DNA from: an uncultured Planctomycetia bacterium
Lineage (GTDB): Bacteria > Omnitrophota > Gorgyraeia > 2-02-FULL-51-18 > JAGOUK01
Reading direction: 5' to 3'
Length of the DNA stretch: 64,000 nucleotides
Assembly: GCA_964430735.1 (NCBI GenBank)
Contig: CAYSFB010000006.1
Span: 12,089 to 76,088 of the forward strand
Every line of letters starts with the position of its first letter. Position 1 is the first letter of the stretch. The notes under the pieces were generated by a model that saw only the letters and a list, made by a program, of their open reading frames with translations, was not told the DNA's origin and did not search any database. Positions 1,208-51,831 of the stretch are shown here, one piece after another. Both the position numbers and the translations under genes were made by a program.

Positions 1208-1341
1208 AGAATTGTTAATATTTTATGACTATGACTAACTATTGTCAATCATGGTCCTTTAAATACATATAAGTATAAATAAAAGATACTGCCACCCCTT
1301 AAGGAGAATGGCAAATTCGATCGCAGTTGTCGTGGCTTGGT

Positions 1342-3264: not shown

Positions 3265-3273
3265 AAAAAAATC

Positions 3274-4110: not shown

Positions 4111-4113
4111 GAA

Positions 4114-5618: not shown

Positions 5619-5642
5619 AAATTAAATAGGGACACGTACTAT

Positions 5643-7229
5643 TTACCGCTCCCGCGCCGACCGGGCGAATTCAATCGCCCGGGTTTCGCGAATCACGGTG
5701 ACTCGGATTTGCCCTGGAAAATTGGAGCTCTGCTGAACGGCCTTCGTGATCTCACGCGCGAGCGCGGGCATTGCGCTGTCAGGCACTTCATTCGGATTGA
5801 CCAAAATACGCAGTTCGCGGCCCGCCTGGATCGCAAACACGCTCTCGACACCCGGAATATTTTTCGCGACCTTCTCGAGCTTTTCCATCCGGTGCAGATG
5901 CTGTTCGATGGTCTCGCGCCGGGCGCCGGGCCGTGAAGCCGAAATCGCATCGGCCGCCTGAAGGAGGACGGGCCAGACCGACTTGGGCGAAATATCCTCA
6001 TGATGCGCTTCGATCGCGTGGATCACATCGTCCGGCTCGCCGTATTTGCGCGCGAGCTCCCCGCCGATGAGGGCGTGCGGCCCTTCGACCTCATGGGACA
6101 CGGTCTTACCGATGTCGTGCAGCAGCCCCGCCCGGCGCGCGGTCACCGCGTCCAGTCCGAGCTGACCGGCGAACACGTTCATGACGGCTGCGACTTCCTT
6201 GGCGTGCGACAGCGAATTCTGACCGTAGCTGGTCCGGTACTTGAGCTTGCCGACAATGGTCATGAGCTCCGGATGCATGTCCGACACGCCGATCTCGAGC
6301 GCCGCCGCCGCGCCGTCCGCGCGGATCGACTGGTCGAGCTCCTGCCGGACCTTGCCGACCGTTTCCTCGATGCTCGAGGGATGGATGCGGCCGTCCTCGA
6401 TGAGGCGCTCAAGCGCCAGCCGCGCGACCTCACGCCGGACCGGATCAAACGCCGAAAGAACCACCGCGCCGGGCGTTTCGTCGATGACGACGTCGACGCC
6501 CGTCGCCTGTTCGAAGGTGCGAATGTTGCGCCCTTCCTTGCCGATGATACGCCCCTTCATCTCTTCGCCGGGAAGCTGGACGACGCTGACCGTCTGATCG
6601 ATCGAAAGCTCCGTCGCGCAGCGCTGAATGGCCTGGGCGACGATATTCTTGGCCTTCTTGTCGGCCATCTCGCGCGCCTCCTCCTCGACGGTCTTGATCA
6701 TCCGGCTGGCCTCGACGCGAACTTCGGTTTCCATCCGGCGCAGCAGCTGCCGTTTGGCGTCTTCGCTGCCGAGACCCGAAAGGCTCTGAAGGCGCTCCTG
6801 CTCCTCCTGGATCATGCGCTCGAGGTCGGCTTTGCGCTTTTCCATTTCTTTCTCGGCCGCTTTGAGACGGTCGGACGCCTTTTCGGCTTCGTGCTGCTTC
6901 GCGCGGGCTTCGTCCATCTGCTTCTGGGCCGCGCGCTCGCGCTCGCCGGACCGCGCGATGGCTTCCTCCATTTCGCGGCGGCGCAGCGTCTGCGTTTCAT
7001 CAAATTCGTGTTTCAGGCGAAGCAGGTAGCTCTCGCCTTCCTTTTGGAGTTCGGCGCGGCGGCGTTCGGCGTCGCGCTCGGAGGCGGTGCGGATCTCTTC
7101 GGCGCGCGTCTCGGCGCCGCGGATTTTTTGCTCGCCGATCTTGAGGCGGACCCAGTATCCGAGCGCCGTAAAAACGGCGCCGAAGACGAGGCTGAGGAGG
7201 ATGAACGAAACGAGGCTGGCGGTGCTCAT
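5643..7229 (-). CDS. rny: ribonuclease Y
   Basis: 528 aa. N-terminal TM helix, long coiled-coil, KH domain (GRIIGKEGRNIRTFEQATGVDVVID) and HD domain (HAKEVAAVMNV...LLHDIGK). Confidence 0.9.
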   Translation of the reverse strand: MSTASLVSFILLSLVFGAVFTALGYWVRLKIGEQKIRGAETRAEEIRTASERDAERRRAELQKEGESYLLRLKHEFDETQTLRRREMEEAIARSGERERAAQKQMDEARAKQHEAEKASDRLKAAEKEMEKRKADLERMIQEEQERLQSLSGLGSEDAKRQLLRRMETEVRVEASRMIKTVEEEAREMADKKAKNIVAQAIQRCATELSIDQTVSVVQLPGEEMKGRIIGKEGRNIRTFEQATGVDVVIDETPGAVVLSAFDPVRREVARLALERLIEDGRIHPSSIEETVGKVRQELDQSIRADGAAAALEIGVSDMHPELMTIVGKLKYRTSYGQNSLSHAKEVAAVMNVFAGQLGLDAVTARRAGLLHDIGKTVSHEVEGPHALIGGELARKYGEPDDVIHAIEAHHEDISPKSVWPVLLQAADAISASRPGARRETIEQHLHRMEKLEKVAKNIPGVESVFAIQAGRELRILVNPNEVPDSAMPALAREITKAVQQSSNFPGQIRVTVIRETRAIEFARSARER

Positions 7230-7289
7230 TTTAAAGGAACTCCATTTTCGAAGGGCCGCCCTCCAAACTGCCGGCGGAGCCCGCTTGAT

Positions 7290-7856
7290 TTATGCGAACA
7301 GGACGCGGTCTACTTTTTCGTCGTGCGGCTCGCGCGGAACGCGGTCCACGCGCTGACATTCAAACGCCGGCGCGATGCGCGCGGCCTTCCGGCCGAGCCG
7401 GGACAAAAACTTGTCGTAATACCCCTTGCCGCGGCCGAGCCGGTATCCCTCGCGGTCAAACGCGAGTCCGGGCACGATCACGCAATCAATCGCTGCCGGG
7501 TCCGCCGCCGGCAGCACGCCGGGGTCCGGCTCGAGAATCCCGAACGGCCCGGGAACAAAAGAACCTTCCCAGCGCGTGAGCCGCCGCGCTTCGAGCACGC
7601 CTTCCGCCGCCAGGACGCGCGGGACGAGGACGGTGCGCCCCTCGGACAAAAGCCGCCGGATGAGGCCGTGCGTATCAAACTCCTCGGGCATCGACACATA
7701 GCAAAATACGGTGCGGCTTTTTTGAAAAAGTTCGTCCGCCTGAAGCTCCCCGGCGAGCCGTGCGGACCGAAGCCGCCGGTCCTCGGGACTCATCTGCCGC
7801 AGCGCGGCCGCAATCCTGCTCCGCAGCGCTTTTTTTTGATCCGCGACGGGATCCAT
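7290..7856 (-). CDS. 5-formyltetrahydrofolate cyclo-ligase (MTHFS)
   Basis: Conserved motifs LVPRV, GYRLGRGKGYYD. I chose the internal Met (MDPVADQKKALRSRI...), which gives about 188 aa. Its ATG overlaps the Rrf2 stop as TGATG. The track ORF extends to 7979, but that extension is an Arg/Pro-rich stretch with no recognisable similarity. Confidence 0.75.
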   Translation of the reverse strand: MDPVADQKKALRSRIAAALRQMSPEDRRLRSARLAGELQADELFQKSRTVFCYVSMPEEFDTHGLIRRLLSEGRTVLVPRVLAAEGVLEARRLTRWEGSFVPGPFGILEPDPGVLPAADPAAIDCVIVPGLAFDREGYRLGRGKGYYDKFLSRLGRKAARIAPAFECQRVDRVPREPHDEKVDRVLFA

Positions 7857-10933: not shown

Positions 10934-13900
10934 TTACGAGAGCGGATTGCCTGCGATGAGTTCGCGTCCCGGTTCTTCCGGTGCCGCGAACCGCTCATCC
11001 TCACTCTGTTCAGACTGCTGGTCCTGAACCCAGTGCATGTCCAGAATCTGATCCATCGCCGTATTCTGCAGCTCCTCCTCCATCACGGACGAACTCATAT
11101 CGTCCGGGTCGAGCCAGCCGTCGCCGATCGGCAGAATAAACCACTCGTCAACCGGATCGCTCCACTCATCCACTTCGCCTAAATTGACAAGCGACGCAAA
11201 ACGCTCGCCGTCGGCGGATTTGAATTCGAACACCAGGGTTCCAAGCTCCTGCCCGCCTTCCTGCACGAGATAAAACTGATCGATCTGAAAGTCCTCTCCG
11301 CCAAAGTACTCGCGGGCTTCCGCCTGAGCGCGTCCGAGAACATCCTCGGGGCCGTTCTTGCCCAAATAGTGAAGCTCGACCGGTTCCGGCTGTTCCTTGT
11401 CAGGCGATACGAGGTAGCGGGCTTCAAAATGATCGGACTCAAGACCAAATTCGTATATGCCCTTGCCGCCCTCCACCCAGCGGGTGCGGAATTCGTTCTC
11501 AGACGAGGCCACTCCCTCCGCCAAGTGCGTCCGGGCGCTCTGATTGGCGGCGACCACATCGGGATCGACCTCCATCCCGCCGTCAAAGGAAGGCGCATCG
11601 GATCCGGAGGGCGCCAAGGTGCCCGCATAGTCCCGGACATCCACCCTTCCGCTCCGCCAATCATGTTCGCCGTACTTGAAAGCGGCCGCATACGTCCAGA
11701 CGCCGTTTTCCCAGCGAGTTTCGGCAATCCCGATTTCCGCAGGATCGGCGTTGAGCTTCTCCGCGACGGCCTGGACCGCCATCTCCATCCTTTGCTTCAT
11801 ATATGCGGAGGGTTCCACATTGAGAATCGCGCCCTGGCGATTCACCCTCACGTCAAACCGGTATCCGGGCACCGTTTCGACGGCCAACACCATTTCACCT
11901 GCTGCGGGGTCATGCTGAGCCACGCCCGCTACCCGTGCGTCGACTCCATACTTGCGGATCACCGCATCGACCGCTGAGGCCGCAAGATCGGCGCCGGTTT
12001 CCTGATCGATCATCGTTCGAATGATTCGCTGAGCGGAATGGCGGGCATACTCTTCCGAATACACGGAATATCCAAAAAAGCCCGCCTCATACTCAATCTT
12101 GATGTCATGCCCCGCCGCCACCGCATAAATCAAGACCGCGGGCGAGATTCCCGACCCCTCTATCGGCCGCTCCAGAAGCAAAATTCCGTTGATAAAGGAC
12201 TCAGGAGCAACATCCTGATGCGATTGCTTAAAAATCCGGTTCAATTCATGCCGTGCGTCCGCTGCGGCGGTCAGAAGATCAAAGCCACCTTCCGTCGGTA
12301 GCGTCAGCGCGTCGCCGACGACCTTGCCCTTCACGGACGCGTGCGGAAGCAGGAAGTTTATGAATAGACTTTGGTCATCCGCAATCTCATAGCCGCTGAC
12401 CTCAACCGTCTCCGGGTTCAAAAGCCGGATCAACTCCTCTTTGGCCGCCTGGATTCGATCCTCGATGCGGTTGTCGACTTCCACCGCACCTGTTTGGAGA
12501 TCGGCGCGGGCCTCGTAAGTTTTGCCGTCCCTGTCCATCAGGGTGATCCTGAGCATCTGGTCATTCTCGAAGAACCAATCCGCCACGGTCAGCTCAACCG
12601 CGATATCCCGGCCGCCCGCAATCGAAGCCGCGACACGTTCCTTGGCTGTCTGCAAATATTCAACGCCGGTTTGCTGGTCCCAGATCCTGAACACACGGCT
12701 GTACGAAGGCATGTCGTATCGGGAATCCCCGCTCCAGTCATAGATGATGTCGAATCGGTCGGCTGTCCGATAAAAGAATTGATGCTGCGGCACGAATCCC
12801 TCGACCCGCGCCATCAACATCGTGTGTGTGTCGCCGCCCAAGACCCCGGCGCGGCTCATCACCTCGTACCGAGCGGCTCCGGCCGCCTCCACGAGATCCG
12901 GGTTCATCAACTGGACATTTGACTCGCGAATCTCCACATCCACCCCGGCATTGCCAAAAATACTCGTCTCTCCCATTCCATATTGGACCCAGATGCTTCC
13001 ATAGCCGGAAGGGCCGTACCCATCGATCCGGCCGCCGATCGGCGTAACGGGGTTCAGCTTGGCATTCACGGACTCCAGGATGCGGCTCAACTCCACACGG
13101 GCCTCGTCCATAACGGGTTCAATTTTTTCTAGGGTCACGCCGGAAGAGAGATCATCCCAACGGAATTCAAATTCCGCGCTGCCGCTGCGGAGGCGCACGG
13201 AGGCCGAGCCCCCGTCGGCAATGCACCGGACACAAATGGCTTCAGTAGGCGCGTTGATGATTCCGCGATTCTGAAGTTCACGTCGCGCCCCTTCCAGCGC
13301 GGTCACCATGGCCGGGTCCGCCTCGATCACGCCGGACTCGGGGTAGACGGTCATCCAAATCGAACTGTGGATGATGGTCGGACCGTCGACACCCGCCTGT
13401 TCCTGAACACCGCATTCCAGCTGAATCCGACCGCCTTCATCACGCGCAGAAAGCACTTTTACATCACCGAACGGTTCGAGTATTTTGGCGGCCTGCTTGA
13501 GCACATCCTTCAGCGTGACTTCATCTCCAAAGTGAAGAGCGAGCGCCTCGCCGGCCGCATCCAGCTCAACCCAAATTGTCTCGGTGAAGCTGATGCCCAT
13601 ATGGGAACCGTCACGCAATATGCCGAAGCTCATGATCGAATCACCGGGAAGTCCGGCGGTGCGGACCATTTGCTTGGCCTTCTCCACAAGATCGTCTCCC
13701 GAACGGCGCGAAATAAGCTTCTCCAGGCTGGTTCGCTTGGCCGACACGATGCCGTTTAATACATCTGCCTTGAGGATGGCCTTGTACATCGGGGTCGTGA
13801 TATCCGCCTCGATCGCTCGACCGGACTTATTGATTTCCTTGAAGAGCGGGGTCTCGAACCCGCGCAAGCCGTCGATATGCGTTTCGGAAAGGTCAGATCC

Positions 13901-14584
13901 ATCCTTACTGACCAATCGCTGCGATGCAAACCGACGCAAAGCGAGAACCGCTTCCTGCTCGTAATCCTGCAAACCCGAGGTCAACTGGTCCGGATCGACC
14001 CAGACCCGGATATCCCCGCCTTGAAGCTTGAATTGTACGATCGTCCGCGTGCTGTCCGGCGTGATGTTCACGACCTCGTAGATGCTGGGATTAACGATCG
14101 ACACCAACAGGTCCTTGGCAATCTTCTGCACGTCGATGACGACAGGCTTTCCTTGGTCGGCCGGTGTTGCCGACACCAGTCGGACATCGACGGCCCGGCC
14201 CGAATTGTCATAACTGAATTTTTCGATCGACTTCAGCCGCTGGGCAAAGTCGTAGCGGGCGCGGGAAACCAGCCGGTCCCCGATATAGAGGTCCCGGGTA
14301 CCAACGCGTCCGGCAGGTCCTGACCGATAGGAGTAAACCACTGATTTGGCGGCTGTGCTGCGCTTCGATAGACGGCCCCTGTTTCCCTTATAAGATTCGT
14401 CGAGATACTCCGAGCAGGATGACCCGAGGCACACGCTTTTGATCCGCCCGCTTCCATAATAAGTGTAGGCAGGTTTGATGGCGGCATCGGCTGATGGAAT
14501 GGCAAAGAGCACCGAGGAAAGGGGGATCGATACAAGCACCAGAAGTTTTGCGCAGTTGATGGTGATATTCGTGGAATTAGCCAT
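10934..14584 (-). CDS. large secreted hypothetical protein (1216 aa) with recurring PepSY-like beta-domain motifs and an acidic C-terminal tail
   Basis: N-terminal signal peptide (MANSTNITINCAKLLVLVSIPLSSVLFAIPSADA). No catalytic motif recognised. Repeated motifs of the type DRDGKTYEARADLQTGAVEV / ENGVWTYAAAFKYGEHDWRSGRVDV / ELGTLVFEFKSADGERFASLVNLGEV. AT-rich promoter region at 14585-14745. Confidence 0.7.
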   Translation of the reverse strand: MANSTNITINCAKLLVLVSIPLSSVLFAIPSADAAIKPAYTYYGSGRIKSVCLGSSCSEYLDESYKGNRGRLSKRSTAAKSVVYSYRSGPAGRVGTRDLYIGDRLVSRARYDFAQRLKSIEKFSYDNSGRAVDVRLVSATPADQGKPVVIDVQKIAKDLLVSIVNPSIYEVVNITPDSTRTIVQFKLQGGDIRVWVDPDQLTSGLQDYEQEAVLALRRFASQRLVSKDGSDLSETHIDGLRGFETPLFKEINKSGRAIEADITTPMYKAILKADVLNGIVSAKRTSLEKLISRRSGDDLVEKAKQMVRTAGLPGDSIMSFGILRDGSHMGISFTETIWVELDAAGEALALHFGDEVTLKDVLKQAAKILEPFGDVKVLSARDEGGRIQLECGVQEQAGVDGPTIIHSSIWMTVYPESGVIEADPAMVTALEGARRELQNRGIINAPTEAICVRCIADGGSASVRLRSGSAEFEFRWDDLSSGVTLEKIEPVMDEARVELSRILESVNAKLNPVTPIGGRIDGYGPSGYGSIWVQYGMGETSIFGNAGVDVEIRESNVQLMNPDLVEAAGAARYEVMSRAGVLGGDTHTMLMARVEGFVPQHQFFYRTADRFDIIYDWSGDSRYDMPSYSRVFRIWDQQTGVEYLQTAKERVAASIAGGRDIAVELTVADWFFENDQMLRITLMDRDGKTYEARADLQTGAVEVDNRIEDRIQAAKEELIRLLNPETVEVSGYEIADDQSLFINFLLPHASVKGKVVGDALTLPTEGGFDLLTAAADARHELNRIFKQSHQDVAPESFINGILLLERPIEGSGISPAVLIYAVAAGHDIKIEYEAGFFGYSVYSEEYARHSAQRIIRTMIDQETGADLAASAVDAVIRKYGVDARVAGVAQHDPAAGEMVLAVETVPGYRFDVRVNRQGAILNVEPSAYMKQRMEMAVQAVAEKLNADPAEIGIAETRWENGVWTYAAAFKYGEHDWRSGRVDVRDYAGTLAPSGSDAPSFDGGMEVDPDVVAANQSARTHLAEGVASSENEFRTRWVEGGKGIYEFGLESDHFEARYLVSPDKEQPEPVELHYLGKNGPEDVLGRAQAEAREYFGGEDFQIDQFYLVQEGGQELGTLVFEFKSADGERFASLVNLGEVDEWSDPVDEWFILPIGDGWLDPDDMSSSVMEEELQNTAMDQILDMHWVQDQQSEQSEDERFAAPEEPGRELIAGNPLS

Positions 14585-31432: not shown

Positions 31433-32206
31433 TTATTGCAATATGTTCTGTACTTCGCCCAAGAATTCTTTTGTGAATTCCTCGTATTTTTTGCTTGCGA
31501 CAGAATCTTTATCGTATCGCATAATCGGTTTGCCGAATCCGGGGGCTTCGCTCATTTTGACCGACCGCGGAATCACCGATTGATAAACTTTTTCGCCAAA
31601 ATGCTTCCGGACCTCTTGAATGACTTGCTCGGTGAGTTTGGTCCGGCCATCGGCCATCGTCATGAGAATTCCTTCGATATGCAAACTAGGGTTCAAATTA
31701 TCCCGTACCAGATCGATGGTTTTGACCAGCTGGCCCAAGCCCTCCAGGGCGTAGTACTCACACTGGATCGGAATCAGAACAGAGCCGGCGGCGGTAAGCG
31801 CATTGATCGTGAGAATGCCTAGTGACGGCGGACAATCAATAATGCAATAGTCAAATTTGTCAGCCAAAGGAGCAAAAGCCCGTTTTAATCGGCCTTCGCG
31901 ACCCATTTCGTTCACAAGTTCGATTTCTGCGCCCGTTAGATTGATATTGGAGGGGACGAGCCACAGATTCTCGATCTGCGTCTGAATCATGATCTCTTCT
32001 ACGGGCTTATGCTGGAGAAGGATGTCGTAAGCAGACTGCTGGATGGTATTTTTGTCGATACCCAAGCCGCTGGTGGCATTTCCTTGTGGATCCAAGTCAA
32101 CCAGAATGGTCTTTTTACCGGCAAGTCCTAAAAAACTCGCCAGTGTGATGGAGGTTGAGGTCTTTCCAACGCCGCCTTTTTGATTACAAACTGAGACTAT
32201 TTTCAT
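31433..32206 (-). CDS. parA: chromosome partitioning ATPase ParA (Soj)
   Basis: Starts at the internal Met (MKIVSVCNQKGGVGKTSTSI...), deviant Walker A. Confidence 0.9.
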   Translation of the reverse strand: MKIVSVCNQKGGVGKTSTSITLASFLGLAGKKTILVDLDPQGNATSGLGIDKNTIQQSAYDILLQHKPVEEIMIQTQIENLWLVPSNINLTGAEIELVNEMGREGRLKRAFAPLADKFDYCIIDCPPSLGILTINALTAAGSVLIPIQCEYYALEGLGQLVKTIDLVRDNLNPSLHIEGILMTMADGRTKLTEQVIQEVRKHFGEKVYQSVIPRSVKMSEAPGFGKPIMRYDKDSVASKKYEEFTKEFLGEVQNILQ

Positions 32207-36064: not shown

Positions 36065-36402
36065 TTTATCTTACTTTTTTCGACTAACGGTTTCATAACT
36101 GCCAGCACCTCGCCCATTCGGATGGCTTTAGGCGGATCCGATTTAACCGAAAATCGCCACATTTCGGTGAGGGGCGGGTCAAATGCAAGCGCTCGAGCCG
36201 CTTCACGGATGAGTCGCCGGACTCGTGAACGCCGAACACTTTTGGCCACGACTTTCTTGGGGATGCTGATCACCCAGGCATGGCGTCCGATCCGGGGGGA
36301 TCGGTAAAGAACCAGCCAGCCGGATGAGCGCGGCGGCGTCGGACTAAGCAGCGAGCTTATGGCGCCCCTTTTGGCGGCGTTTGGACAGCACTCTGCGCCC
36401 AT
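36061..36402 (-). CDS. rnpA: ribonuclease P protein component
   Basis: 113 aa. RNR motif region ([17 protein letters not shown]). The first in-frame ATG lies inside the rpmH coding sequence in another frame (overlap about 59 nt). The true start is uncertain. Confidence 0.75.
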
Positions 36403-36481
36403 CGGCGGTTTTCATTCTCTTGCGGAAACCCGCTTTGCGCTTGCGCTTGACGTTGGATTTATTGCGAAGGTTGTATTTCAT
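36344..36481 (-). CDS. rpmH: 50S ribosomal protein L34 (not in ORF track)
   Basis: Minus-strand ORF ATG at 36479-36481 translating [45 protein letters not shown] (45 aa), stop TAG. Confidence 0.85.
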
Positions 36482-36499
36482 GCTCTTTTATCCTGATTG

Positions 36500-36830
36500 T
36501 AAGGCCGGTTAGAAGCGAGAATTATATCACAATTCCAGGCCGTCGCAAACCAAACGCCGAGCAAGAATCACTATCTTTTTTGTATTTTCTCCGACCGAGG
36601 CCCGACCCGGTCGTGTCCTCGTCCGAATGACGACAGTCTAAATAAGTATTATATCTATTAACATGAATCAGATATTATTATTAATTATTTGTTATGGATA
36701 TTGATTAAATAACTCTAGAGTCCATACTTATATTGGAAATAAAATATATGGTTATTAAAGTCCATAAAAATAAGATTTTGCATATTTCATCCTGGGTGAT
36801 GAGCTTTGTCTTCATCTTCCACACCTTGGC
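36500..36830. other. strongly AT-rich tract (rpmH-proximal intergenic region plus the first 100 nt or so of the giant gene): candidate promoter and/or DNA-unwinding element of oriC
   Basis: Runs such as aaataagtattatatctattaacatgaatcagatattattattaattatttgttatggatattgattaaataactc contrast sharply with the GC-rich flanks. Position: between rpmH and dnaA. Confidence 0.5.
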
Positions 36831-39800
36831 AGGAGATGCTGGCGTCGCTTGGGCCGACCTATTCCTGGACGATCAGTCACAATCTGGGCTCATTGACTCC
36901 ACGCTGCGTCCCGATCCAGGCGTGGAAGCCGCTCAAGCGGATGAAGAAGCCGGTATCACACGCTATCCAAGCGGCCGGATCCAGTCCCAAAGAAACGCAG
37001 AAACCGGCGCGATCACTTACTTCGAGGATCGATACCCGGGGCGCATCAGCCAGGTGGAATATCCGGACGGAACCATGGAGGTGGTCAAGGCATATGATGC
37101 GGTCACGAACGAAGCCAAAACGGTCGAGCGCTACGATGCGGATGGCGCTCTGCTTCACCGTATCGACTATGAATACACGTCCGTGAACGGGACGGTTCAA
37201 GTCGCGGCATCGGTGCGCGGACCATCGGGCACGACGCCTTATTCGCTGACCTATGTCAAAGATGAGAACAATGTCGTATCAATGAAAAAACTGGAGGTGT
37301 TCGGCGCATCCGGACCCGGGGCGGATTTGGCGAGTCTCATGAATGCTACCGATCATCAGAACTCGCCGCTTCCTGGAGGCTGGTCTGCAGTGACAAATGG
37401 TTACTTCGTTCCGGATAAAATTTCTTTTGAGATTCTGCCGGACGATACGGTGGATCTCGTTTATTCCCGCGGGCCCCTCGTGCCGGTCGAAACGCGAAAC
37501 AGCTGGAATGCCGCCGCCAGCACGTTCACGACCAGCTTCGACCTCGAGATCAGCGGCCGCCCGGACCTTGGCCTCATAACGACCGATTGGTCGATCGCAC
37601 TGACGTCTTCGGGAAGCGTTTATTTGCCTTTTTTGCTTAAGACGATCACCACGGACTTTGTCATGGACTTCGGTTTTAACGGCGGTATGGGCAAAGCCCA
37701 TGAAGTGGGTCTTCTCAACTACGATCAGCGAGGATTGATCACGGAGACGACCAACGCTCAGCTCCTCTACGACGCAGACGGTAAGCTGCTCGCGGAGAGC
37801 GGGCAGCGGCTCACTTACGGTTACTCGACCTATCAGCCGAACGACCAGCCGCAGATTCTTCTGACCAGCGTCACGCGCCTCGACCTTGCGGGTCCTTCCC
37901 AACAAACTGTCAGCCGGGAATTCGTCCAGGTCGGAAATGATCTGCGTGTATCCGAGATCCACCATGCGGACGGACGGACGGTCCTGTATGACTCTTTGGG
38001 CCGCGTCTCCGAAATGCGCTTCGCCGATGGGGCCATCGAAAAAATCTTGCTCTACGAGGGAGATTCCTCCCGGATCCTCGCAGCCGAACGCCGCAACGCC
38101 CGGGGCGTCGTCACCCACAGACTCGGTTACATTTACTCCACGGTCCAGGGGGTCGAATACACCACCGTGAATGTCCAGGGGCCCGATGCGACCACCGGCT
38201 ATAGTTTTACCTACTTCCAGAATTCCTCCGGCTCCACGCAGCTGGCCAGGTTCGATCTCACAACCCGGCCGGAAGGGTTTAAGGATTTTTATCTGGGCTA
38301 TTCCAGCCCTTCTGCTGGCGCCGAACTCAGTCCTGAATCCGGTTTGTATCAAAGATTTGGCTGGGACCTGTTCGGCGGCGGATCTGACACCGTTTTTGCG
38401 GGCAGCACGAGCCTTTCGCTCAACGCCGACGGATCCGCAAATGGCACCGGCGGCTCCGGACAAATCCCCCTGACCGTGTCGTGGGATCCTGGGACCTCGA
38501 CCGTCACGGCCCATCAGAACGCAAAGGTCCTCGGCACGGACTTCTCCGCGGACTGGTCCATCCATTTCACCTCCACCGCGGATTCTTTGATGCCTTTTCG
38601 GATCGATGCGGTGAGCGCCTCCGCTTCCAACGCCGACGGCAGCCGGCAGGGCGGTGTCGTTTATCAATACGATCCCGACGGATTGCTGACGAAAAAGGTG
38701 GTCTCCTCCAAGGACGTGCCGAACGGCCAAAGAGAGACAACCACCGACTACACGTATACGACTTATGAGCTGTCGGGTCGGTCCATCGTTGTTCTGACCG
38801 GATCTGCGCGGCATTATTTGCAAAAGGCCCCGTCCTCCGGAGGGACCGATTACACCGAGTCGACCGGCGCTTCGAGAGAATTCGAAGTGATGGGCAACTA
38901 TCTCGTCACTTCAAAGTTCAGCAGCAGTGAATACATGAGTCCGACCGGTGATTTTTACCATCAATACGACGCTTTGTATGACTACGAGACCATCGACGGA
39001 AAGCCCTATCTCACATCCAGCGCGTATGCGGGAGACGGCCGCGTCCCCGGTCCGACCGCCTTTTTTATCTATACCCCCGAGTCGAGAAGTCTGCCCTTCA
39101 CACAAAATGGCCGCTATGACTATGCGTATGGGGTCGTGAACGGCGAAGTCAAACTTCTGGAGCAAAAGGAACACTTCGAGCTCTTGTCCCAAAACGGCAA
39201 CCTGCTCGTGAACGACACGACGACGACCAGCCAGTACGGTGTCGTCGGCGGCCAAACGGTCCTCCTTGCGTCCACGATGACCCAACGCGCGGAAGTTTCC
39301 AAGGACGGCATCAAGCTCAGCAGCTATGTCGTGGACAACCCGAGGGTCAGCCGATACGCAGTGATCGACGGAAAAACGACCCAGATCATGAGCCGGAACG
39401 CCTATCGTCGCGTCATCACCAACTTGCTGACCTCGGAAGTTTACACAGAGGACAGCATGCGCATGAATGTCCTGAACCGGACCCGGGGCGTGATGCTCGA
39501 GAAGCTGGTCTACACCAGCAACAGTCAGGACATCACGAGGATCGCTCCGGATTTTGACTCCACGCTTGCCGGTCTTCAGCAGGACTACCCGGAACTGTTC
39601 CAGTCGCTGGAACCCGGGTCGTGGGGATACCTTCCTCCCACTGATATAAAAGAATACGACGCCGGCACAGGCAAGCTCGTCAAGATCACCTACGAAAATG
39701 GAGACGTTCGGGAGTTCGATCCGGACGGGTTGGTGAAAAGCTTTTATGAGGCCGCCACCGGCAACAGGACCGAATACATGCCGGACACGCTGAACCGTCC

Positions 39801-42528
39801 GGCCAGGATCATTTATGCCGACGGCGCAGAAGACCGGATCACCGGATATTTCGGAGACACCTCGCAGGTCCAGTCGGTCGAGCGATATGACCGGGAGAAG
39901 GTCCTGACACACACGCTGACTTACGCCTACGAAACCCTGGACGGCGTCGAATGGACGCATCTCTCCGTCGCCGGCCTCACCTCCATGAGCTACCGGATGA
40001 GTTACACCAAAAATCCGGACGGGACCGTGGATCTGAAAAAATTCTCCATGGGACTCGATAAGACCCCGCCCGCGGACGATCCGACCGACGTTTACGGCTC
40101 GGCCCGGAACGAGAGTTCGGAGTGGGCCTCCGCCTTGGACAGCATTTTTTCAGTTTGGGACATGAAATATGGCCGCCCCATCGGCTTTGGAGCGGCGCAG
40201 ATCTCGTTCGATTTGACGGACCCGCAGGCCGTGTCGGCTGATTTTAGCACCAACCGCCAGGACGGCCCGATTCCGCAGACCCGGTCTGCGGCTTGGGATC
40301 CGCAGGCACTGGTTCTTAGCGCCAATGTGGACGCGCCGATCGCTTCGGATGGCTACTTTTCCAATCCTTATAATCTGGACTGGTCGATCGGGATCGAAAA
40401 AGGCCGGAGCGGGTCGTTTTTGCCGTTCGAGGTCCGCTCCGTCCACTTCGTGAAACAGGACAAGGTTTATTGGGGATATGTCGGGCTAGAGACGCGGGAT
40501 TATGATCAAACTTCTTCGCAGACCATCACGTTCGACCATCGTGGTCTGGCAACCCGGATCGACGGAATGAGCATGTACGTGTATCCGGGAGGCGACACGG
40601 TCCAGAAGCGCGAGTCTTCCGTGCTTCTGGATTATCAAACGTTCGATCTCGGCGGCCGGTCGGTTGTCCGGCGCACGCGGACCCGTTACACGCGGAACGA
40701 CGCGCGGCCGTTCGGGGTCAATTACGATTACCGAACGGAATCGAATTACGAATATCAGAGATACGGGGGTGATTACAAGTCGAGCCATCAGACCATTCAG
40801 AACTTCGAGGGCGAGCACGGAACCGTGTTGACGTCTCCGGGTGTCGAGCACTATTACCGGGATTATTCGGCTATCAACGGCACCCTTTACGAGATCTCGA
40901 CCCGCTCGATCTCAGCCGACGGAACGTCCATCACGAAGACGTCCACGGACTACGTCCTCGTCGGGGGACAGCCGATGACGGCCCGGGCCACGACCCACAC
41001 AACCTCCATCAATGGGACCAGGATCAAGAACGAGGCTCTGGACAGAATCCTGAGCTACGTCGAGCTCGACGGCAGGGTCATTCAAAGCGAGCTGCATCAA
41101 ACCCTGACGCGGGTCGAAATACGCCAAGGAAAACTGTACTCGGAAGCCGTCGAGGAGATCATCAGCCAGAACCGGTATGCGCTGCTGCTCGGCATTCCAA
41201 GGGCGATCGTGACGCGGCAGATCCGGCAATCCCAAATCTCGTATCACGCAGAGGGGTATACCAATAAGACCTACAATGCATCGACGATTCTGCGCGGGTT
41301 GGGGGAGAACGACGTCCTCCTGTCCGGTCTTCAAGACCTCAAATTGAATGAGGCCGGCGTCTGGCAGACTTCCAAAACGGGGGCTTACGACACGCTCTTG
41401 GCCGCGCATCCCGAATTGGCTGCGATCATGGCGGAATTCGTTCCGATGACTCCCCGCCGCAAACCGTCGAATTTGGGCAATGAATTCGATTCAGACGATC
41501 GCCTCTTCCAGTCGAACTTCACGAACGGCGATCGCGTGAGGTTCAACGCCGACGGCTGGATCATCGGGTCATTTGACGTGCCTTCAGAACTTCCGGAATT
41601 TGTTCGCGAGCCCGATGCGGCCGCCGCCAAGTCTTCGGCGAATACTCTTTTCCTGCGAAGGACTTCTTTGCCGGACAACGACCTCGGCCCCAAACTCAAA
41701 AAATCCAAGCGGTCCGGTCGGAAGGGGCTTGGGAACTTCGTTGATCCGGAAAAGACCCAAGGCTTGCCGGATACGGGTGCCCTGGCGGATAAATCCCGCA
41801 GGGCTCGTTCCAAAGCATCTGCGCTTTTTGCCGAAACGGCCGCGGACTGCCGCGTCGAAGTATGCCGCGAGACCTTGGATTCGTCTTTGGCCCCGCTTCC
41901 GGAGGAGGACGATCCTTTCCGGCGGTCAGGGGCGAACGGAATGAGCGGTCTTCCGGACGGTCGAGCCAGGGTCTTTCAGCGTGCGCTCACCGATCCTGAG
42001 CTCGCGGTTTTGGGAGAGTCTTCTCGCACAACGCTCACGGAATCTATCACCGCGACAGGAAGGTCCGGCCTCAAACTGCTTCAACAGTTGTTCAGTCTGC
42101 TGGAGGGGCGGACGGCCTCACTGGGCTCCTGGATCGGCCGCAATCCGGCCGCCGCGCCCAAGGAATTCGAAGAGACCCTCCAAAATTCCCTTTTGCTCGT
42201 GAGAAGCCTCCGCTCGATACATATGGCCACAAAGGGAAATCCATCGGTCGGATCCAGTTTATTGGGCGGGGTCGAGGGAATCGCGGTCGGCGGCCTTCCT
42301 TATATACCGATGTTATGCGGAATGATCGCCAGTCAGGTCGTTTTAAATAACGGACCGGGCGCGATCGACACGGTCGGAGAGATCCTCCTTGTCCGATTTG
42401 TGGAGTCGCTTCTCGGTAAACCGGGGAATCGCGGTTGGAACCGGTATTTTGAATCCATCGGCGCACATCGTTCGGGTCCGCTCCAAGCCCCTCCTGCCAT
42501 TTTCGGTCAGATCCTCTCCGACAACTAA
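36733..42528 (+). CDS. giant secreted hypothetical protein (1931 aa) with three internal repeats of about 330 aa carrying YD-repeat-like motifs
   Basis: N-terminal signal/TM (ILHISSWVMSFVFIFHTLAGDAGVAWA). Three modules each contain ...ERYD(A/R)(D/E)xxL(L/T)H(R/T)(I/L)xYxYx(S/T)xxGxxxxxxxV(R/Q/A)GP-like blocks and a DWSI(A/H/G) element. Frequent YDxxGxL / DPDGL motifs. The C-terminal roughly 400 aa has no recognisable domain. Confidence 0.75.
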   Translation: MEIKYMVIKVHKNKILHISSWVMSFVFIFHTLAGDAGVAWADLFLDDQSQSGLIDSTLRPDPGVEAAQADEEAGITRYPSGRIQSQRNAETGAITYFEDRYPGRISQVEYPDGTMEVVKAYDAVTNEAKTVERYDADGALLHRIDYEYTSVNGTVQVAASVRGPSGTTPYSLTYVKDENNVVSMKKLEVFGASGPGADLASLMNATDHQNSPLPGGWSAVTNGYFVPDKISFEILPDDTVDLVYSRGPLVPVETRNSWNAAASTFTTSFDLEISGRPDLGLITTDWSIALTSSGSVYLPFLLKTITTDFVMDFGFNGGMGKAHEVGLLNYDQRGLITETTNAQLLYDADGKLLAESGQRLTYGYSTYQPNDQPQILLTSVTRLDLAGPSQQTVSREFVQVGNDLRVSEIHHADGRTVLYDSLGRVSEMRFADGAIEKILLYEGDSSRILAAERRNARGVVTHRLGYIYSTVQGVEYTTVNVQGPDATTGYSFTYFQNSSGSTQLARFDLTTRPEGFKDFYLGYSSPSAGAELSPESGLYQRFGWDLFGGGSDTVFAGSTSLSLNADGSANGTGGSGQIPLTVSWDPGTSTVTAHQNAKVLGTDFSADWSIHFTSTADSLMPFRIDAVSASASNADGSRQGGVVYQYDPDGLLTKKVVSSKDVPNGQRETTTDYTYTTYELSGRSIVVLTGSARHYLQKAPSSGGTDYTESTGASREFEVMGNYLVTSKFSSSEYMSPTGDFYHQYDALYDYETIDGKPYLTSSAYAGDGRVPGPTAFFIYTPESRSLPFTQNGRYDYAYGVVNGEVKLLEQKEHFELLSQNGNLLVNDTTTTSQYGVVGGQTVLLASTMTQRAEVSKDGIKLSSYVVDNPRVSRYAVIDGKTTQIMSRNAYRRVITNLLTSEVYTEDSMRMNVLNRTRGVMLEKLVYTSNSQDITRIAPDFDSTLAGLQQDYPELFQSLEPGSWGYLPPTDIKEYDAGTGKLVKITYENGDVREFDPDGLVKSFYEAATGNRTEYMPDTLNRPARIIYADGAEDRITGYFGDTSQVQSVERYDREKVLTHTLTYAYETLDGVEWTHLSVAGLTSMSYRMSYTKNPDGTVDLKKFSMGLDKTPPADDPTDVYGSARNESSEWASALDSIFSVWDMKYGRPIGFGAAQISFDLTDPQAVSADFSTNRQDGPIPQTRSAAWDPQALVLSANVDAPIASDGYFSNPYNLDWSIGIEKGRSGSFLPFEVRSVHFVKQDKVYWGYVGLETRDYDQTSSQTITFDHRGLATRIDGMSMYVYPGGDTVQKRESSVLLDYQTFDLGGRSVVRRTRTRYTRNDARPFGVNYDYRTESNYEYQRYGGDYKSSHQTIQNFEGEHGTVLTSPGVEHYYRDYSAINGTLYEISTRSISADGTSITKTSTDYVLVGGQPMTARATTHTTSINGTRIKNEALDRILSYVELDGRVIQSELHQTLTRVEIRQGKLYSEAVEEIISQNRYALLLGIPRAIVTRQIRQSQISYHAEGYTNKTYNASTILRGLGENDVLLSGLQDLKLNEAGVWQTSKTGAYDTLLAAHPELAAIMAEFVPMTPRRKPSNLGNEFDSDDRLFQSNFTNGDRVRFNADGWIIGSFDVPSELPEFVREPDAAAAKSSANTLFLRRTSLPDNDLGPKLKKSKRSGRKGLGNFVDPEKTQGLPDTGALADKSRRARSKASALFAETAADCRVEVCRETLDSSLAPLPEEDDPFRRSGANGMSGLPDGRARVFQRALTDPELAVLGESSRTTLTESITATGRSGLKLLQQLFSLLEGRTASLGSWIGRNPAAAPKEFEETLQNSLLLVRSLRSIHMATKGNPSVGSSLLGGVEGIAVGGLPYIPMLCGMIASQVVLNNGPGAIDTVGEILLVRFVESLLGKPGNRGWNRYFESIGAHRSGPLQAPPAIFGQILSDN

Positions 42529-42540
42529 AACCTGCTCCTA

Positions 42541-42569
42541 TTGCTGGACGGGAACTCCCTTGCTATAAT
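42541..42569 (+). promoter_or_regulatory. dnaA: sigma70-like promoter TTGCTG-N17-TGcTATAAT (extended -10), about 175 nt upstream of the dnaA start
   Basis: Read directly. Correct 17-nt spacer and perfect -10 with a TG extension. Function is unproven. Confidence 0.35.
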
Positions 42570-42658
42570 GCTGAATCTTTAGGGTCGGGAAGTTTGAGAC
42601 GAAGGCTGTGTAAAAGGCCTTGTCTTAGGTTTCATTCCGTGTCTCTTTGGCCTATAAT

Positions 42659-42667
42659 TGTGGATAA
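42659..42667. promoter_or_regulatory. DnaA box (TGTGGATAA = reverse complement of TTATCCACA, perfect match)
   Basis: Read directly in the AT-rich region upstream of dnaA. Confidence 0.5.
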
Positions 42668-42742
42668 CTTTTGTTATTTAACCCTATTGTTTTCAATAGG
42701 TTGTATTTTATATCCACCGCATTATTGAGGATGTTCACAATC

Positions 42743-42751
42743 TGTGGATAA
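42743..42751. promoter_or_regulatory. DnaA box (TGTGGATAA, perfect) overlapping the dnaA GTG start codon
   Basis: Read directly: ...tcTGTGGATAAtttgaac, where GTG GAT AAT TTG AAC codes for V/M-D-N-L-N of DnaA. Confidence 0.5.
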
Positions 42752-44096
42752 TTTGAACATTCTATCGCCTCAGGACGTCTGGGCGAAGGTGATGGAATAC
42801 CTGGAACGCGAACTTTCGGCCGTTTCGATCGACCGATGGTTCCGGAACCTCACCCCTTCCGAAGTCTCCGATCAAACGCTTACCGTCGACGTTCCGGACG
42901 AATTTTTTAAAAATTGGATCGAAGAGCACTACCTTGAATTGATTTATCAGGGGCTCAAGAGTTCCGGTTCGCCCGTTTCGCAGTTCAAACTCAAAGTCGT
43001 TCCGCGTAAAATCACCGACACGCCGGCTCCCAGCGCATCGCCCGATCGCTTTTCGTCCGAACAGCCGCGGCCTGACCGACCCACGCTCAATTCGCAGTGC
43101 ACGTTCGAAGAATTCGTCGTCGGGCCGTCGAACCGTTTCGCGCACGCGGCATGCCTCGCCGTCGCGGACCGCCCGGCCAAAGCGTACAACCCACTGTTCA
43201 TCCACGGCCCCGTGGGCCTGGGCAAAACCCATCTCATGCAGGCCATCGGACACGAAGTGCTGCGCCGCAATCCGAACGCGAGCGTTCTCTATATTACGAG
43301 CGAAAAGTTCACCAACCAGCTCATCAACGCGATTCAGAACCAGACGACGCTCAAGTTCCGCGAAAAATACCGCACGGTCGACGTGCTGCTCATCGACGAC
43401 ATCCACTTTATCGCCGGCAAAGAAGCGACGCAGGAAGAGTTCTTCCATACGTTCAACGCTCTGCACGACAGCCACAAGCAGATCATCGTTTCGAGCGACC
43501 GGCCGCCCAAGGAAATCATCAATCTCGAAGAGCGCCTCATCTCCCGTTTTGAGTGGGGTCTCGTCACGGACATCCAGAAACCGGACTTCGAGACGCGGGC
43601 GGCCATCCTGCGTAAAAAAGCCCTGCGCCACAACATTCCCGTTCCGGATCCGGTCACGAACTTCATCGCTGAGATTGTTCACTCCAACATCCGCGAGCTT
43701 GAAGGCGCGCTCATGCGGGTGGTCGCCTACGCGGAACTCACGACGATGCCGGTCACACTCGAACTTGCCCAGGAAGTCCTGAAGCGTGTGGCGCAGGAGA
43801 GCGAAAAAAAGATCACGCTTGAATACATTCAAAAGAAGGTGAGCGACTACTTCTCAATCCGAATCAATGAGCTCATGGCCAAGCGCCGTAGTAAAAATAT
43901 CGTTTTACCGCGCCAGATCGCAATGTACCTTTCGAGAGAATTAACAAATCATTCGCTTCCCGAGATCGGACAGTCGTTCGGCGGAAAGGACCACACCACA
44001 GTCATGCATGCGTGTGAAAAGATCCGGACAGGTCTCGAAAAAGACATGAGCCTTAAAGAAATGGTAAATCGCATTCGTCAGACCATTTCCAACTAG
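42744..44096 (+). CDS. dnaA: chromosomal replication initiator DnaA
   Basis: 450 aa. Walker A GPVGLGKTHL. Sensor and box VII motifs. C-terminal DNA-binding domain. Apparent GTG start. Confidence 0.95.
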   Translation: MDNLNILSPQDVWAKVMEYLERELSAVSIDRWFRNLTPSEVSDQTLTVDVPDEFFKNWIEEHYLELIYQGLKSSGSPVSQFKLKVVPRKITDTPAPSASPDRFSSEQPRPDRPTLNSQCTFEEFVVGPSNRFAHAACLAVADRPAKAYNPLFIHGPVGLGKTHLMQAIGHEVLRRNPNASVLYITSEKFTNQLINAIQNQTTLKFREKYRTVDVLLIDDIHFIAGKEATQEEFFHTFNALHDSHKQIIVSSDRPPKEIINLEERLISRFEWGLVTDIQKPDFETRAAILRKKALRHNIPVPDPVTNFIAEIVHSNIRELEGALMRVVAYAELTTMPVTLELAQEVLKRVAQESEKKITLEYIQKKVSDYFSIRINELMAKRRSKNIVLPRQIAMYLSRELTNHSLPEIGQSFGGKDHTTVMHACEKIRTGLEKDMSLKEMVNRIRQTISN

Positions 44097-44234
44097 AGTT
44101 GTACACAGTTTTTGATTCAGGTAATGTGTTTGAATGAAACGAGTTGTGACAATATCGCGCTAATCACAGCGACTACGGCTATGACTACTTTTTCTTTAGC
44201 GCTAAAAAACTAATAATAATAGAGAGTGTGAATA

Positions 44235-45335
44235 ATGAGGATAAGTGTACAAAAAGAAGATTTGGTTAGAGGAATTCAAACGGTACAAAATGCCGTGAGC
44301 GTTCGGGGTTCCCTGCCTATCCTCGCAAATATTTTATTGGAAACAAAAGACAACCAACTTTGTTTAACTGCGACTGATTTGGATATTGCCATTTCCTGTT
44401 TTATCCCCGCGGAGATACAGGAGAAGGGTGCAATCACGGTTCCTGCAAAGCGTTTTGGTGACGTTATTAAAGAGTTGTGGTCGGACGACGCAATCAAACT
44501 TCAAGTGGTCAAGGGGAACACGGTTCAAATCGAAACCAAAAAAACGAATTACAAAATTCCAGGTTTGGCCAAAGACGACTTTCCTCAAATTCCGTTTTTC
44601 ACAGGTGAAAAAAACGCGATCATTCTTCCTCAGCGCACACTGAATGAAATGTTGAAGATGACGCAGTTTGCGATGAGCCGGGACGAGGCGCGTTACGTTT
44701 TAAACGGAACTTTATTTTCTTTTAACGGAAAAACAGCCCGGTTGGTCGCGACGGACGGACGGCGCCTGGCGATGATTGAGCGTGAGATGGAAAAACCCTC
44801 CCCAATCAAAAAGAATGTGATCATCCCCACCAAAACGATTCACGAACTTTCTCGGAATCTCCAGGAAGCGGGAGAAGTGAATATTTTATTCAAAGAGAAT
44901 CAAATTCAATTCCAGATCAATCAAACCTACATCACCAGCCGTCTAATCGAAGGGGAATTCCCGAATTATGAACAAGTCATCCCCCAAAAGACCAAAGAGC
45001 AGTTGATCCTCAGCACCAAGGATTTTCTTTCGGCCACGCGCCGGGCGAGTATTTTTACAAATCAGGAATCCCAATCCATTAAAATCAGCCTCGATAAAAA
45101 CCGGATGGTGATTTCCAAAAATACGCCGGAAGTCGGTGAAGCGTATGAGGAGATTGAAACGGATTATAAAGGCGGCGGTCTGGTGATCGGGTTCAACCCC
45201 AATTACCTTATCGACGTCCTTAAGACGATTCCGGATGAAAAAGTAAAATTCGAACTCATTGATCCTGAAAAACCCGGAATGATCCGGGCCGAAAACAATT
45301 ACACCTACATCGTCCTGCCGATGCAGCTGTCGTGA
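44235..45335 (+). CDS. dnaN: DNA polymerase III beta sliding clamp
   Basis: 366 aa, three-domain clamp (MRISVQKEDLVRGIQTVQNAV...). Confidence 0.95.
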   Translation: MRISVQKEDLVRGIQTVQNAVSVRGSLPILANILLETKDNQLCLTATDLDIAISCFIPAEIQEKGAITVPAKRFGDVIKELWSDDAIKLQVVKGNTVQIETKKTNYKIPGLAKDDFPQIPFFTGEKNAIILPQRTLNEMLKMTQFAMSRDEARYVLNGTLFSFNGKTARLVATDGRRLAMIEREMEKPSPIKKNVIIPTKTIHELSRNLQEAGEVNILFKENQIQFQINQTYITSRLIEGEFPNYEQVIPQKTKEQLILSTKDFLSATRRASIFTNQESQSIKISLDKNRMVISKNTPEVGEAYEEIETDYKGGGLVIGFNPNYLIDVLKTIPDEKVKFELIDPEKPGMIRAENNYTYIVLPMQLS

Positions 45336-50826: not shown

Positions 50827-51831
50827 ATGAGATTCCTTCTTCGAATCCTGCGACCTTCGCCTGATTCCCACCTGATCGGAGACCGGCAGCGGAAGCTGCT
50901 GGCTTGGCTGATGGCTGCGGCCGTCCTTGTGGGAGCCGTCGGTCTCGGCCGTTATTTTTATGCGCAGTTTGAAGCGGCGCAGCAGGAAAAAGCGCTCCTT
51001 CGGGCGCGGGCCGTCGCTTGGCTCCAGCTTCGGGACCGGATCCGGGAAGAGCTTCTCGCGTTCCACGGAAAGTCCGGCGTCATCGTCCGGGATCTCAAAA
51101 CCGGGTGGGAGCTTTCGCACAACCGTTCTAAGCCCTTTGCGTCAGCCAGTCTCGCCAAGCTCCCCATCATGGTCGCGCTGCTGCAGGCCGCGGAAGCCGG
51201 CCAGTTCAGCCTGGACCAGGAAATCACCCTCAAGTCCTCGGACAAGCTCGAAGGCTCCGGCGATCTGAAAAGCATGCCCTCCGGCGCGTCGTTCGGCATC
51301 GGCAAGCTCATCACGCTGATGATCGCCGACAGCGACAACACCGCCACCGAGATGTTGACCAAGTTCATGGGCCAGGACACGCTGAACGCGGCGTTTGAGC
51401 GCTATGGTCTGGAAGTGACCCGTCTGAACCGGCATGTCGCCGATTACGTCGCACGCGACCGGAGGGATATCGAGAATTACACGACCGCCGAGGAAATGGC
51501 GTCGCTGCTCGATCAGATTTATCACCGCAAACTTGTCAGCCGCAATGTGTCGGACCAGTGCATCACGACACTTAAGCTCTCTCGCACGAACGACCGCATC
51601 CCACGCTACCTGCCTCCGGAATTATCCGTTGCGCACAAAACGGGGCTCGAAAACGGCGTGTGCCATGACGCCGGAATTCTCTTTTCTCCGGAGGGGGATT
51701 TGATCGTGGTCGTCCTCACCAACCACAATGACGCGACGCACGGCCGCGCCAAAGAACTCATCGGCCGTGTGGCGCGGCTGTCTTACGAATATCTGGGCAG
51801 CTGGAAACCCGCGGAAACATCCGCGGGTTAG
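50827..51831 (+). CDS. class A beta-lactamase-family serine hydrolase with N-terminal membrane anchor
   Basis: SxxK (SLAK), SDN (ADSDNTAT) and KTG (HKTGLENG) motifs present. The start could be the downstream Met (MAAAVLVG...). Confidence 0.7.
   Translation: MRFLLRILRPSPDSHLIGDRQRKLLAWLMAAAVLVGAVGLGRYFYAQFEAAQQEKALLRARAVAWLQLRDRIREELLAFHGKSGVIVRDLKTGWELSHNRSKPFASASLAKLPIMVALLQAAEAGQFSLDQEITLKSSDKLEGSGDLKSMPSGASFGIGKLITLMIADSDNTATEMLTKFMGQDTLNAAFERYGLEVTRLNRHVADYVARDRRDIENYTTAEEMASLLDQIYHRKLVSRNVSDQCITTLKLSRTNDRIPRYLPPELSVAHKTGLENGVCHDAGILFSPEGDLIVVVLTNHNDATHGRAKELIGRVARLSYEYLGSWKPAETSAG

Follow-up and report, generated by a model that had tools for sequence, protein, structure and literature searches.

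The region considered here is the interval between rpmH and dnaA in a 64,000-nucleotide stretch of DNA (hereafter the window; contig CAYSFB010000006.1 of assembly GCA_964430735.1, positions 12,089 to 76,088 of the forward strand) from an uncultured bacterium that the relatives of its DnaA protein place in Candidatus Omnitrophota. Pfam assignments give the order parB-parA-mnmG-yidC-yidD-rnpA-rpmH on the minus strand and dnaA-dnaN-DciA (DUF721)-gyrB-gyrA on the plus strand, in agreement with an earlier annotation made by a model from the letters and open reading frames (ORFs) only (the sequence-only reading). Between rpmH and dnaA, on the plus strand and co-oriented with dnaA, lies the giant intact ORF that was reported at the same time; it extends from TTG at 36733 to 42528 (1931 amino acids), although an ATG form of 1926 amino acids starting at 36748 is also possible and is the one found in the public protein record P0001, a singleton cluster present on three contigs. 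Two run assemblies (L001 and L002) match the window at 100% over 17.5 and 11.4 kb, both junctions of the interval included, and since they are independent of each other the arrangement does not stem from an error in any one assembly. The 1926 codons are free of stops, as opposed to 53 and 46 stops in the other two forward frames. The guanine-plus-cytosine (GC) content at the third codon position (GC3) is 0.69 and exceeds GC1, which in turn exceeds GC2, and the codon use resembles that of the host genes (r 0.79). Antisense ORFs of 142-514 amino acids within the gene gave no match in a Pfam scan, and an Rfam scan of 36300-42900 found nothing.

Comparison with other members of the phylum indicates that this gene is a lineage-specific acquired insertion between rpmH and dnaA. 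The distance separating these two genes is 249-732 bp in the 21 Omnitrophota loci containing both, against 6311 bp in the window, and about 5.95 kb has therefore been inserted. In the closest relatives, L003 (DnaA 92% identical) and L004 (89%), the gap measures 339 and 346 bp, respectively, and the gene could not be traced by tblastn in the relatives, these two included. The edges of the insert can be placed at 36556-36570 on the left and between 42529 and 42555 on the right: the left flank is alignable with the relatives to approximately 36555-36565, which takes in rpmH and its extended -10 promoter, and on the right the alignment resumes from about 42555 with the extended -10 TGcTATAAT (42561-42569) of the dnaA promoter together with the DnaA boxes and a small hairpin. 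The suggestion of an acquired insertion, made earlier as one of two possibilities, is thus supported both by the short spacing in the relatives and by the failure to trace the gene there. Read-through of the ORF into ancestral intergenic DNA was also considered, prompted by a match of GCCCCTCCTGCC to L003 (E 0.12), and was rejected because the C-terminus of the ORF aligns with the C-terminus of its protein family to within a few residues of the end. The position in the gap alone is not exceptional, since cargo genes between rpmH and dnaA are found in Acidobacteriota as well; in two Terriglobales loci (L080, 5781-10001, and L050, 7098-10001) DUF6077, LprI-like and Kelch-repeat genes occupy gaps of 2.9-4.5 kb. 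Several loci from Acidobacteriota also have rpmH in inverted orientation relative to dnaA.

In the sequence-only reading the gene fills the place where oriC normally lies. A displacement of oriC is not supported, since the promoters of rpmH and dnaA, the DnaA boxes and a predicted unwinding module in the dnaA-dnaN spacer are all intact. The two perfect DnaA boxes (TTATCCACA; 42659-42667 and 42743-42751) and the consensus promoter noted 3' of the ORF are indeed present, and these boxes are the only perfect ones in the 64 kb. All Omnitrophota relatives have box-like sites both in that half of the rpmH-dnaA gap which is nearer to dnaA and in the spacer between dnaA and dnaN, and in the relatives the latter is the more AT-rich (GC 0.20-0.35). 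In the window this spacer carries a block, TAATAATAATAG-AGAG-TGTGAATAA-TGAGGATAA, that overlaps the start codon of dnaN and hardly varies between the window, L003, L004 and L009, although DnaA of L009 is only 66% identical. A basal unwinding system has been defined as one DnaA box or boxes in tandem, a spacer no longer than 16 bp and three or more NAN trios, with 3'-GAT-5' adjacent to the box (PMC8287927); each of these elements is found in the block at 44208-44244, which is probably the basal unwinding system of the Omnitrophota origin. The layout resembles the bipartite dnaA-linked origins of the Bacillus subtilis/Helicobacter pylori type (PMC8287927; PMC6669920), where DnaA boxes lie upstream of dnaA and tandem boxes, trios with 3'-GAT-5' beside the box and an AT-rich tract occupy the dnaA-dnaN spacer. 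The difference is that here, as judged from sequence, a 5.95-kb gene parts the upstream box cluster from rpmH. All origin-type elements lie to the right of the inserted gene, at 0.1-6 kb, and the gene is transcribed towards them; it would therefore be read head-on to the leftward fork, as is dnaA. This is a mild oddity because Omnitrophota replichores reportedly have almost all of their genes on a single strand (West-Roberts et al., bioRxiv 10.1101/2023.11.21.568195). The rpmH-dnaA spacer thus appears to tolerate a 6-kb head-on insertion as long as the dnaA-proximal boxes and the dnaA-dnaN module are intact, and this tolerance supports a functional origin on the dnaA side.

The encoded protein belongs to a very rare and fast-evolving family, with about seven members among 1.84 billion cluster representatives. 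A phmmer search of these representatives with residues 91-1290 returned eight proteins, the first of them the protein's own cluster P0001, followed by P0002-P0005 at E 2e-69 to 1e-29 and by three weak matches (P0006-P0008). All are singletons, and only the weak P0006 bears an organism name, which is Omnitrophota. Word-indexed protein searches returned only the protein itself when the whole sequence was used, and P0001, P0002 and generic subtilases when the family alignment was used; both are weak negatives. Profile scans of metagenome contigs with alignments of the A module (below) and of the subtilase region found generic S8 proteases and no true family member, the whole-family alignment being too divergent to seed such a scan. 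P0002-P0005 and P0007, like a tandem paralogue of P0003 at locus L084, are uncharacterised metagenomic proteins of 1102-1589 amino acids. P0002-P0005 and P0007 consist of a signal peptide (..LAWA/D..), a single A module and a single B module, additional YD-like repeats and a domain at the C-terminus. In the family the A module comprises short YD-like hairpins, an ERYD..H.L.Y.Y block and a DWSI element, and the B module is made of long antiparallel hairpins. The window protein shares with them the signal peptide, the A module (E down to 2e-69), the B module, a YD-like junction of the form NGDxKxFDxDG, corresponding C-terminal ends (..GQILSDN against ..YQLFxN) and an upstream motif described below, and it is this colinear homology plus the motif that places it in the family. 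It differs in having the order A-A-B-A-B in place of A-B and in lacking the long region of YD-like and DGF/DGY repeats that P0003 and P0004 possess. In these two proteins long DGFGRDGFHKTTGLDRDGY-type arrays stand between the YD-like region and the subtilase domain; the window protein has no such arrays.

The only firmly identified domain of the family, by profile matching, is a subtilase at the C-terminus. Pfam Peptidase_S8 (PF00082) matches the C-termini of P0002, P0004, P0005 and P0007 at E 1e-15 to 1e-18, with coverage of profile positions ~75-288 only, and P0003 has the same conserved sequence without a Pfam match. Searched against PDB sequences, the family profile retrieves subtilisins at E 1e-20. 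The C-terminal ~400 residues of the window protein had been described as devoid of any recognisable domain; this needs correction, as the last ~170 residues can be aligned to the subtilase domain of the homologues and are seen as a subtilase remnant. All tblastn matches to the family, this domain included, lie in the frame of the ORF. The remnant is 23% identical to the homologues' domain, compared to 61-64% among the other members, and gives no PF00082 match when the C-terminal segment is scanned at E up to 10. A segment of ~40 residues with the GTSxAAPM serine motif is deleted and the histidine motif is absent, for which reasons the protease is predicted to be dead.

The AT-rich tract at the start of the gene was correctly singled out as the strongest of the window. 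Its GC content is 0.19 over 36637-36786, every other 150-bp window of the 64 kb is at or above 0.29 and the mean is 0.585; the tract extends about 13 codons into the ORF. It had been proposed to be either a promoter or a DNA-unwinding element, and the comparison within the family favours the first. Upstream DNA could be recovered for three other family genes, P0002 (L083), P0003 and the tandem paralogue of P0003 (L084), and all three have a tract of the same kind, with GC 0.18-0.22, just upstream. The four upstream regions are alignable: ATATTGATT, a 16-nucleotide spacer and CATACT are invariant and a TATTATATCTATTAACAT-like block is held in common. Among 164 loci (~2 Mb) exact matches to ATATTGATT-N16-CATACT occur solely upstream of family genes, with a chance expectation of 0.02 matches per window. 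TTGATT-N16-CATACT would be a promoter of the sigma-70 type. The distance from CATACT to ATG is 19 nucleotides in the window and just 7 nucleotides in the L084 genes, which suggests leaderless mRNAs in the latter. These two genes (173-4942 and 5155-7662) each have the motif, and the annotated start of P0003 is probably 19 codons too far upstream since the motif lies inside the called ORF. It was also conceivable that the gene benefits from origin-proximal dosage, as the sequence-only reading had it, but this is not supported as a trait of the family: the window gene is next to dnaA, whereas P0002, the one homologue with neighbours that could be identified, is flanked by luxE- and luxC-like genes, and P0003 is one of a tandem pair. 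A copy of the motif with two mismatches, TTATTGATT-N16-CATTCT (31812-31842, minus strand), is found inside parA, where it may be due to chance or be an internal promoter.

At its N-terminus the window protein has a basic n-region, a hydrophobic core and AWA/D, read from the sequence together with the hydropathy peak, and the signal peptide proposed before is thereby supported as a predicted Sec-type signal that is conserved in the homologues. The repeated motifs are likewise real. A BLOSUM62 diagonal scan (self-BLASTP gave the identity match only) located the ERYD..H.L.Y.Y block three times, at residues ~127, 447 and 1045, with scores of 77-93 against at most 48 in shuffled sequences; the DWSI element is present in three copies, and YD-type motifs of the form [YFW]x0-1[DN]xxGx[LVITM] number 8, against 1.1 +/- 1.1 in shuffles. 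Of the three tandem modules of ~330 residues that were thought to make up the protein, the three ERYD and DWSI copies stand and the equal tandem units do not: the blocks are offset by 320 and 598 residues and hence not evenly tandem, and the architecture is A1-A2-B1-A3-B2, in which A2 and B1 are duplicated as A3 and B2 at an offset of 598 residues, followed by a C-terminal part of residues 1566-1926. The internal duplicates are old, with 22-30% protein identity and no repeats left at the DNA level. An AlphaFold2 model of residues 975-1926 (alignment of 8 rows) has a predicted local distance difference test score (pLDDT) of 60-90 over residues 975-1565 and below 50 thereafter, and its confident part is all-beta. 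A second model, of A2 and B1 (residues 380-974, alignment of 8 rows; mean pLDDT 73.7, predicted template-modelling score 0.69), consists of ~33 antiparallel strands, first as short YD-like hairpins and then as strands of 14-19 residues. Both models take the form of antiparallel meanders.

The explanation that we consider likely is that a cassette of promoter and ORF was inserted between two divergent promoters, that the origin was left intact and that the product is a non-catalytic surface protein. One self-contained unit, made up of the AT-rich promoter region and the 1926-residue ORF, would have landed between the promoters of rpmH and dnaA. The A/B part would have expanded to A-A-B-A-B through old internal duplications and the subtilase part would have decayed. 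Transcription may start from the conserved TTGATT-N16-CATACT, and the product may be exported by Sec and fold into large soluble antiparallel beta sheets, possibly serving at the surface or outside the cell as a non-catalytic binding or scaffold protein. Such a role would suit the lifestyle of contact with other cells, as hosts or prey, that has been proposed for Omnitrophota. A comparison by description can be made with the giant proteins of the same phylum (Archaeovorins, dockerin-type), which are also exported, contain S8 subtilisin-type domains and long regular antiparallel beta structures likened to RHS repeats by the authors, and have been given a cell-surface role in contact with other cells (bioRxiv 10.1101/2023.11.21.568195). 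Those proteins are 10,000-85,000 amino acids long, carry many enzymatic and transmembrane domains and are encoded ~100 kb from the origin, whereas the window protein has 1926 amino acids and no enzymatic domain remaining. If correct, the explanation adds an uncharacterised family of exported proteins with its own conserved promoter, in which one member exchanged its protease for extra beta modules. The family-linked sequences of known source, i.e., the window protein and the weak P0006, both belong to a phylum whose members are believed to live in contact with other cells, and the protein is a candidate surface or contact protein for work on Omnitrophota host or prey interaction.

Several points weigh against the cassette explanation. 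No target duplication, no direct or inverted flanking repeat and no integrase or tRNA could be tied to the insert, and its host-like codon use fits internal relocation and transfer from a related genome alike. The promoter and the unwinding module are predictions, and GC skew gives no origin signal at the scale of the window. Taxonomy is available for few homologues, P0006 being the only one named. The word-indexed search is insensitive, as the C-terminal 636 residues did not retrieve their own cluster, and the rarity of the family consequently rests mainly on phmmer. The family has no studied member, so that the function is inferred throughout. Finally, GC3 falls to 0.61-0.65 in the degenerate C-terminal domain, compared to 0.68-0.79, and on account of this weaker signal the gene could be decaying.

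This last point leads to the possibility of a relic without function: the copy would have been transferred recently and be in decay, though not yet interrupted. The subtilase catalytic motifs are lost and the domain stands at 23% identity in a family whose other members share 61-64%; the codon-position signal is weaker over the last ~280 codons, and the gene is a singleton without an orthologue in close relatives. A relic is not expected to remain stop-free for 5.8 kb when the other frames contain 46-53 stops, however, and the conserved signal peptide and promoter motif, the host-like codon use and the old internal duplicates (22-30% identity), which are still in frame, make this explanation unlikely.

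It is rather improbable that the protein is a canonical RHS/YD polymorphic toxin or a Tc-like cocoon, in which a YD shell would deliver a subtilase-derived C-terminal effector. RHS/YD proteins, such as the Rhs effectors of type VI secretion systems, TcB-TcC and teneurins, are rich in Tyr, Asp and Gly, form antiparallel hairpins of the type Y-D-x-x-G-x-L and combine a large all-beta sheet with a differing C-terminal domain, as does the window protein. The enrichment in YD-type motifs (8 against 1.1 expected) agrees with this, yet these are only ~8 motifs in 1926 residues. The match to Pfam RHS_repeat (PF05593) reaches 21.6 bits for a cut-off of 22 and that to TIGR01643 reaches 15.3 for a cut-off of 15.8; P0002 attains 22.8 bits for RHS_repeat, but all repeat matches of the window protein stay under the curated cut-offs, with scans of separate segments giving 10.6, 21.0 and 15.1 bits. 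An NCBIfam scan at E up to 1 returned TIGR01643 only, without the RHS core (TIGR03696) and without PAAR or VgrG-linked domains. The structure search that had been suggested gives a divided answer: in Foldseek against the PDB the teneurin YD shells come first (E 3e-8, Foldseek probability 0.99), but with template-modelling scores of 0.06-0.09. Fold scores are no better than those of generic beta barrels, and on these models a YD shell cannot be told apart from large beta sheets in general. A PDB sequence search with the protein gave nothing below E 0.6, no Rhs, Tc or teneurin chain is among the top 60 PDB matches of the family profile, and PADLOC and PHROGs gave no matches. Two DPDGL strings (residues 643 and 992) lie at ordinary repeat junctions with further repeats after them, and there is no core end of the type PxxxxDPxGL ahead of a variable toxin. 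The window protein also departs from RHS/YD proteins in that it lacks an autoproteolytic core end, a trafficking domain and an immunity gene: its gene is followed by dnaA, which is not immunity-like, and the C-terminus is homologous across the family in place of being variable. The RHS or polymorphic-toxin architecture that was claimed for the protein is accordingly not sustained.

A further explanation, which seems to us a long shot, is that the A and B modules form an undescribed soluble beta-shell or filament fold that, in the intact members of the family, carries or encloses the subtilase as a protease-delivery or self-processing device at the surface of Omnitrophota, and that the window contains a dead copy coupled to dnaA. 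Transcripts from the strong AT-rich promoter would read into the dnaA promoter and boxes, as no terminator lies ahead of these, and the expression of a surface protein would then be coupled to transcription of dnaA or to initiation. Between the two DnaA boxes there is a small hairpin followed by a T-run (CCTATTGTTTTCAATAGG TTGTATTTTA; 42683-42700, plus strand), in part conserved in L004, and this is the sole terminator-like site between the inserted gene and dnaA.

Very little speaks for the B modules being outer-membrane beta-barrels in an inverse-autotransporter-like protein that displays its C-terminal domain. The predicted N-terminal signal peptide would be compatible with it, but two barrels would be needed in one chain and strands of 14-19 residues exceed the typical membrane-spanning length. 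In the models the strands are polar on both faces, the more hydrophobic face having a mean hydropathy of 0.17, with 1-6 charged residues per strand, for which reason a membrane barrel is unlikely and a soluble Tyr/Thr/Ser-rich sheet is favoured.

The least probable alternative is that the AT island (36.64-36.79 kb) serves, or has come to serve, as the DNA-unwinding element of oriC, in which case the gene would be enclosed in a split origin and read in the direction of the rightward fork: the island is by far the most AT-rich tract of the window, a plus-strand gene would better suit the right side of an origin given the reportedly near one-stranded replichores of Omnitrophota, and the AT skew changes sign near 36-38 kb, but the sign change falls together with the switch of coding strand, the island is absent from every relative lacking the gene, its sequence is homologous to family promoters at loci away from the origin, it contains no DnaA box (36482-36748 scanned) and has none within 5.9 kb, and the conserved trio-and-box module is present in the dnaA-dnaN spacer. 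The comparative evidence thus points to the island as the gene's own predicted promoter region and not as an unwinding element.

Table 1. Features in and around the rpmH-dnaA interval (positions in the window; residues of the 1926-residue protein)
Feature	Residues	Position	Strand	Basis or remark
rpmH (ribosomal protein L34), left neighbour		36344..36481	-	Pfam Ribosomal_L34, E 2.5e-15
rpmH promoter, TTGCGA-N16-TATAAT with TG (predicted)		36521..36548	-	Ancestral; conserved in L003 and L004
Inserted segment, ~5.95 kb		36556..42555	+	Absent from 21/21 Omnitrophota relatives; gap lengths and junction alignments
AT island, conserved upstream region of the gene family		36637..36786	+	Includes GTATTATATCTATTAACAT-like block at 36647-36665
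Promoter-like motif ATATTGATT-N16-CATACT		36698..36728	+	-35-like TTGATT 36701-36706; -10-like CATACT 36723-36728
ORF, P0001, putative secreted all-beta repeat protein with degenerate subtilase tail	1-1926	36748..42528	+	
Predicted Sec signal peptide	1-36	36748..36855	+	Cleavage after AWA; motif conserved in P0002-P0005
Module A1	~60-379	36925..37884	+	Diagonal scan and alignment
Module A2	380 to ~700		+	Alignment
Module B1	~700-974		+	Alignment
Modules A2 and B1	380-974	37885..39669	+	Module boundaries; AlphaFold2 model
Module A3	975 to ~1290		+	Alignment
Module B2	~1290-1565		+	Alignment
Modules A3 and B2	975-1565	39670..41442	+	Unit nearest to homologue P0002 (34% identity)
Low-confidence linker	1566-1753	41443..42006	+	pLDDT below 50; without homologue-specific features
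Degenerate subtilase-like domain		42007..42489	+	tblastn of P0002 residues 903-1098, E 1.6e-7, 23% identity
dnaA promoter, TTGCTG-N17-TGcTATAAT (predicted)		42541..42569	+	Extended -10 conserved in L003 and L004
Two perfect DnaA boxes upstream of dnaA		42659..42751	-	Ancestral, conserved in relatives
dnaA		42792..44096	+	ATG 42792 is the start in public assemblies; longest ORF from GTG 42744
Predicted unwinding module TAATAATAATAG-AGAG-TGTGAATAA-TGAGGATAA		44208..44244	+	DnaA-trios, 4-bp spacer, tandem boxes

Two other genes of the window may be mentioned. A second large ORF of 1216 amino acids (10934-14584, minus strand) is not a paralogue of the gene in the rpmH-dnaA gap, and Pfam gives no match for it at E up to 1e-5. 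Directly 3' of gyrA lies a gene of the class A beta-lactamase family (50827-51831, plus strand; Pfam Beta-lactamase2, E 1e-61).

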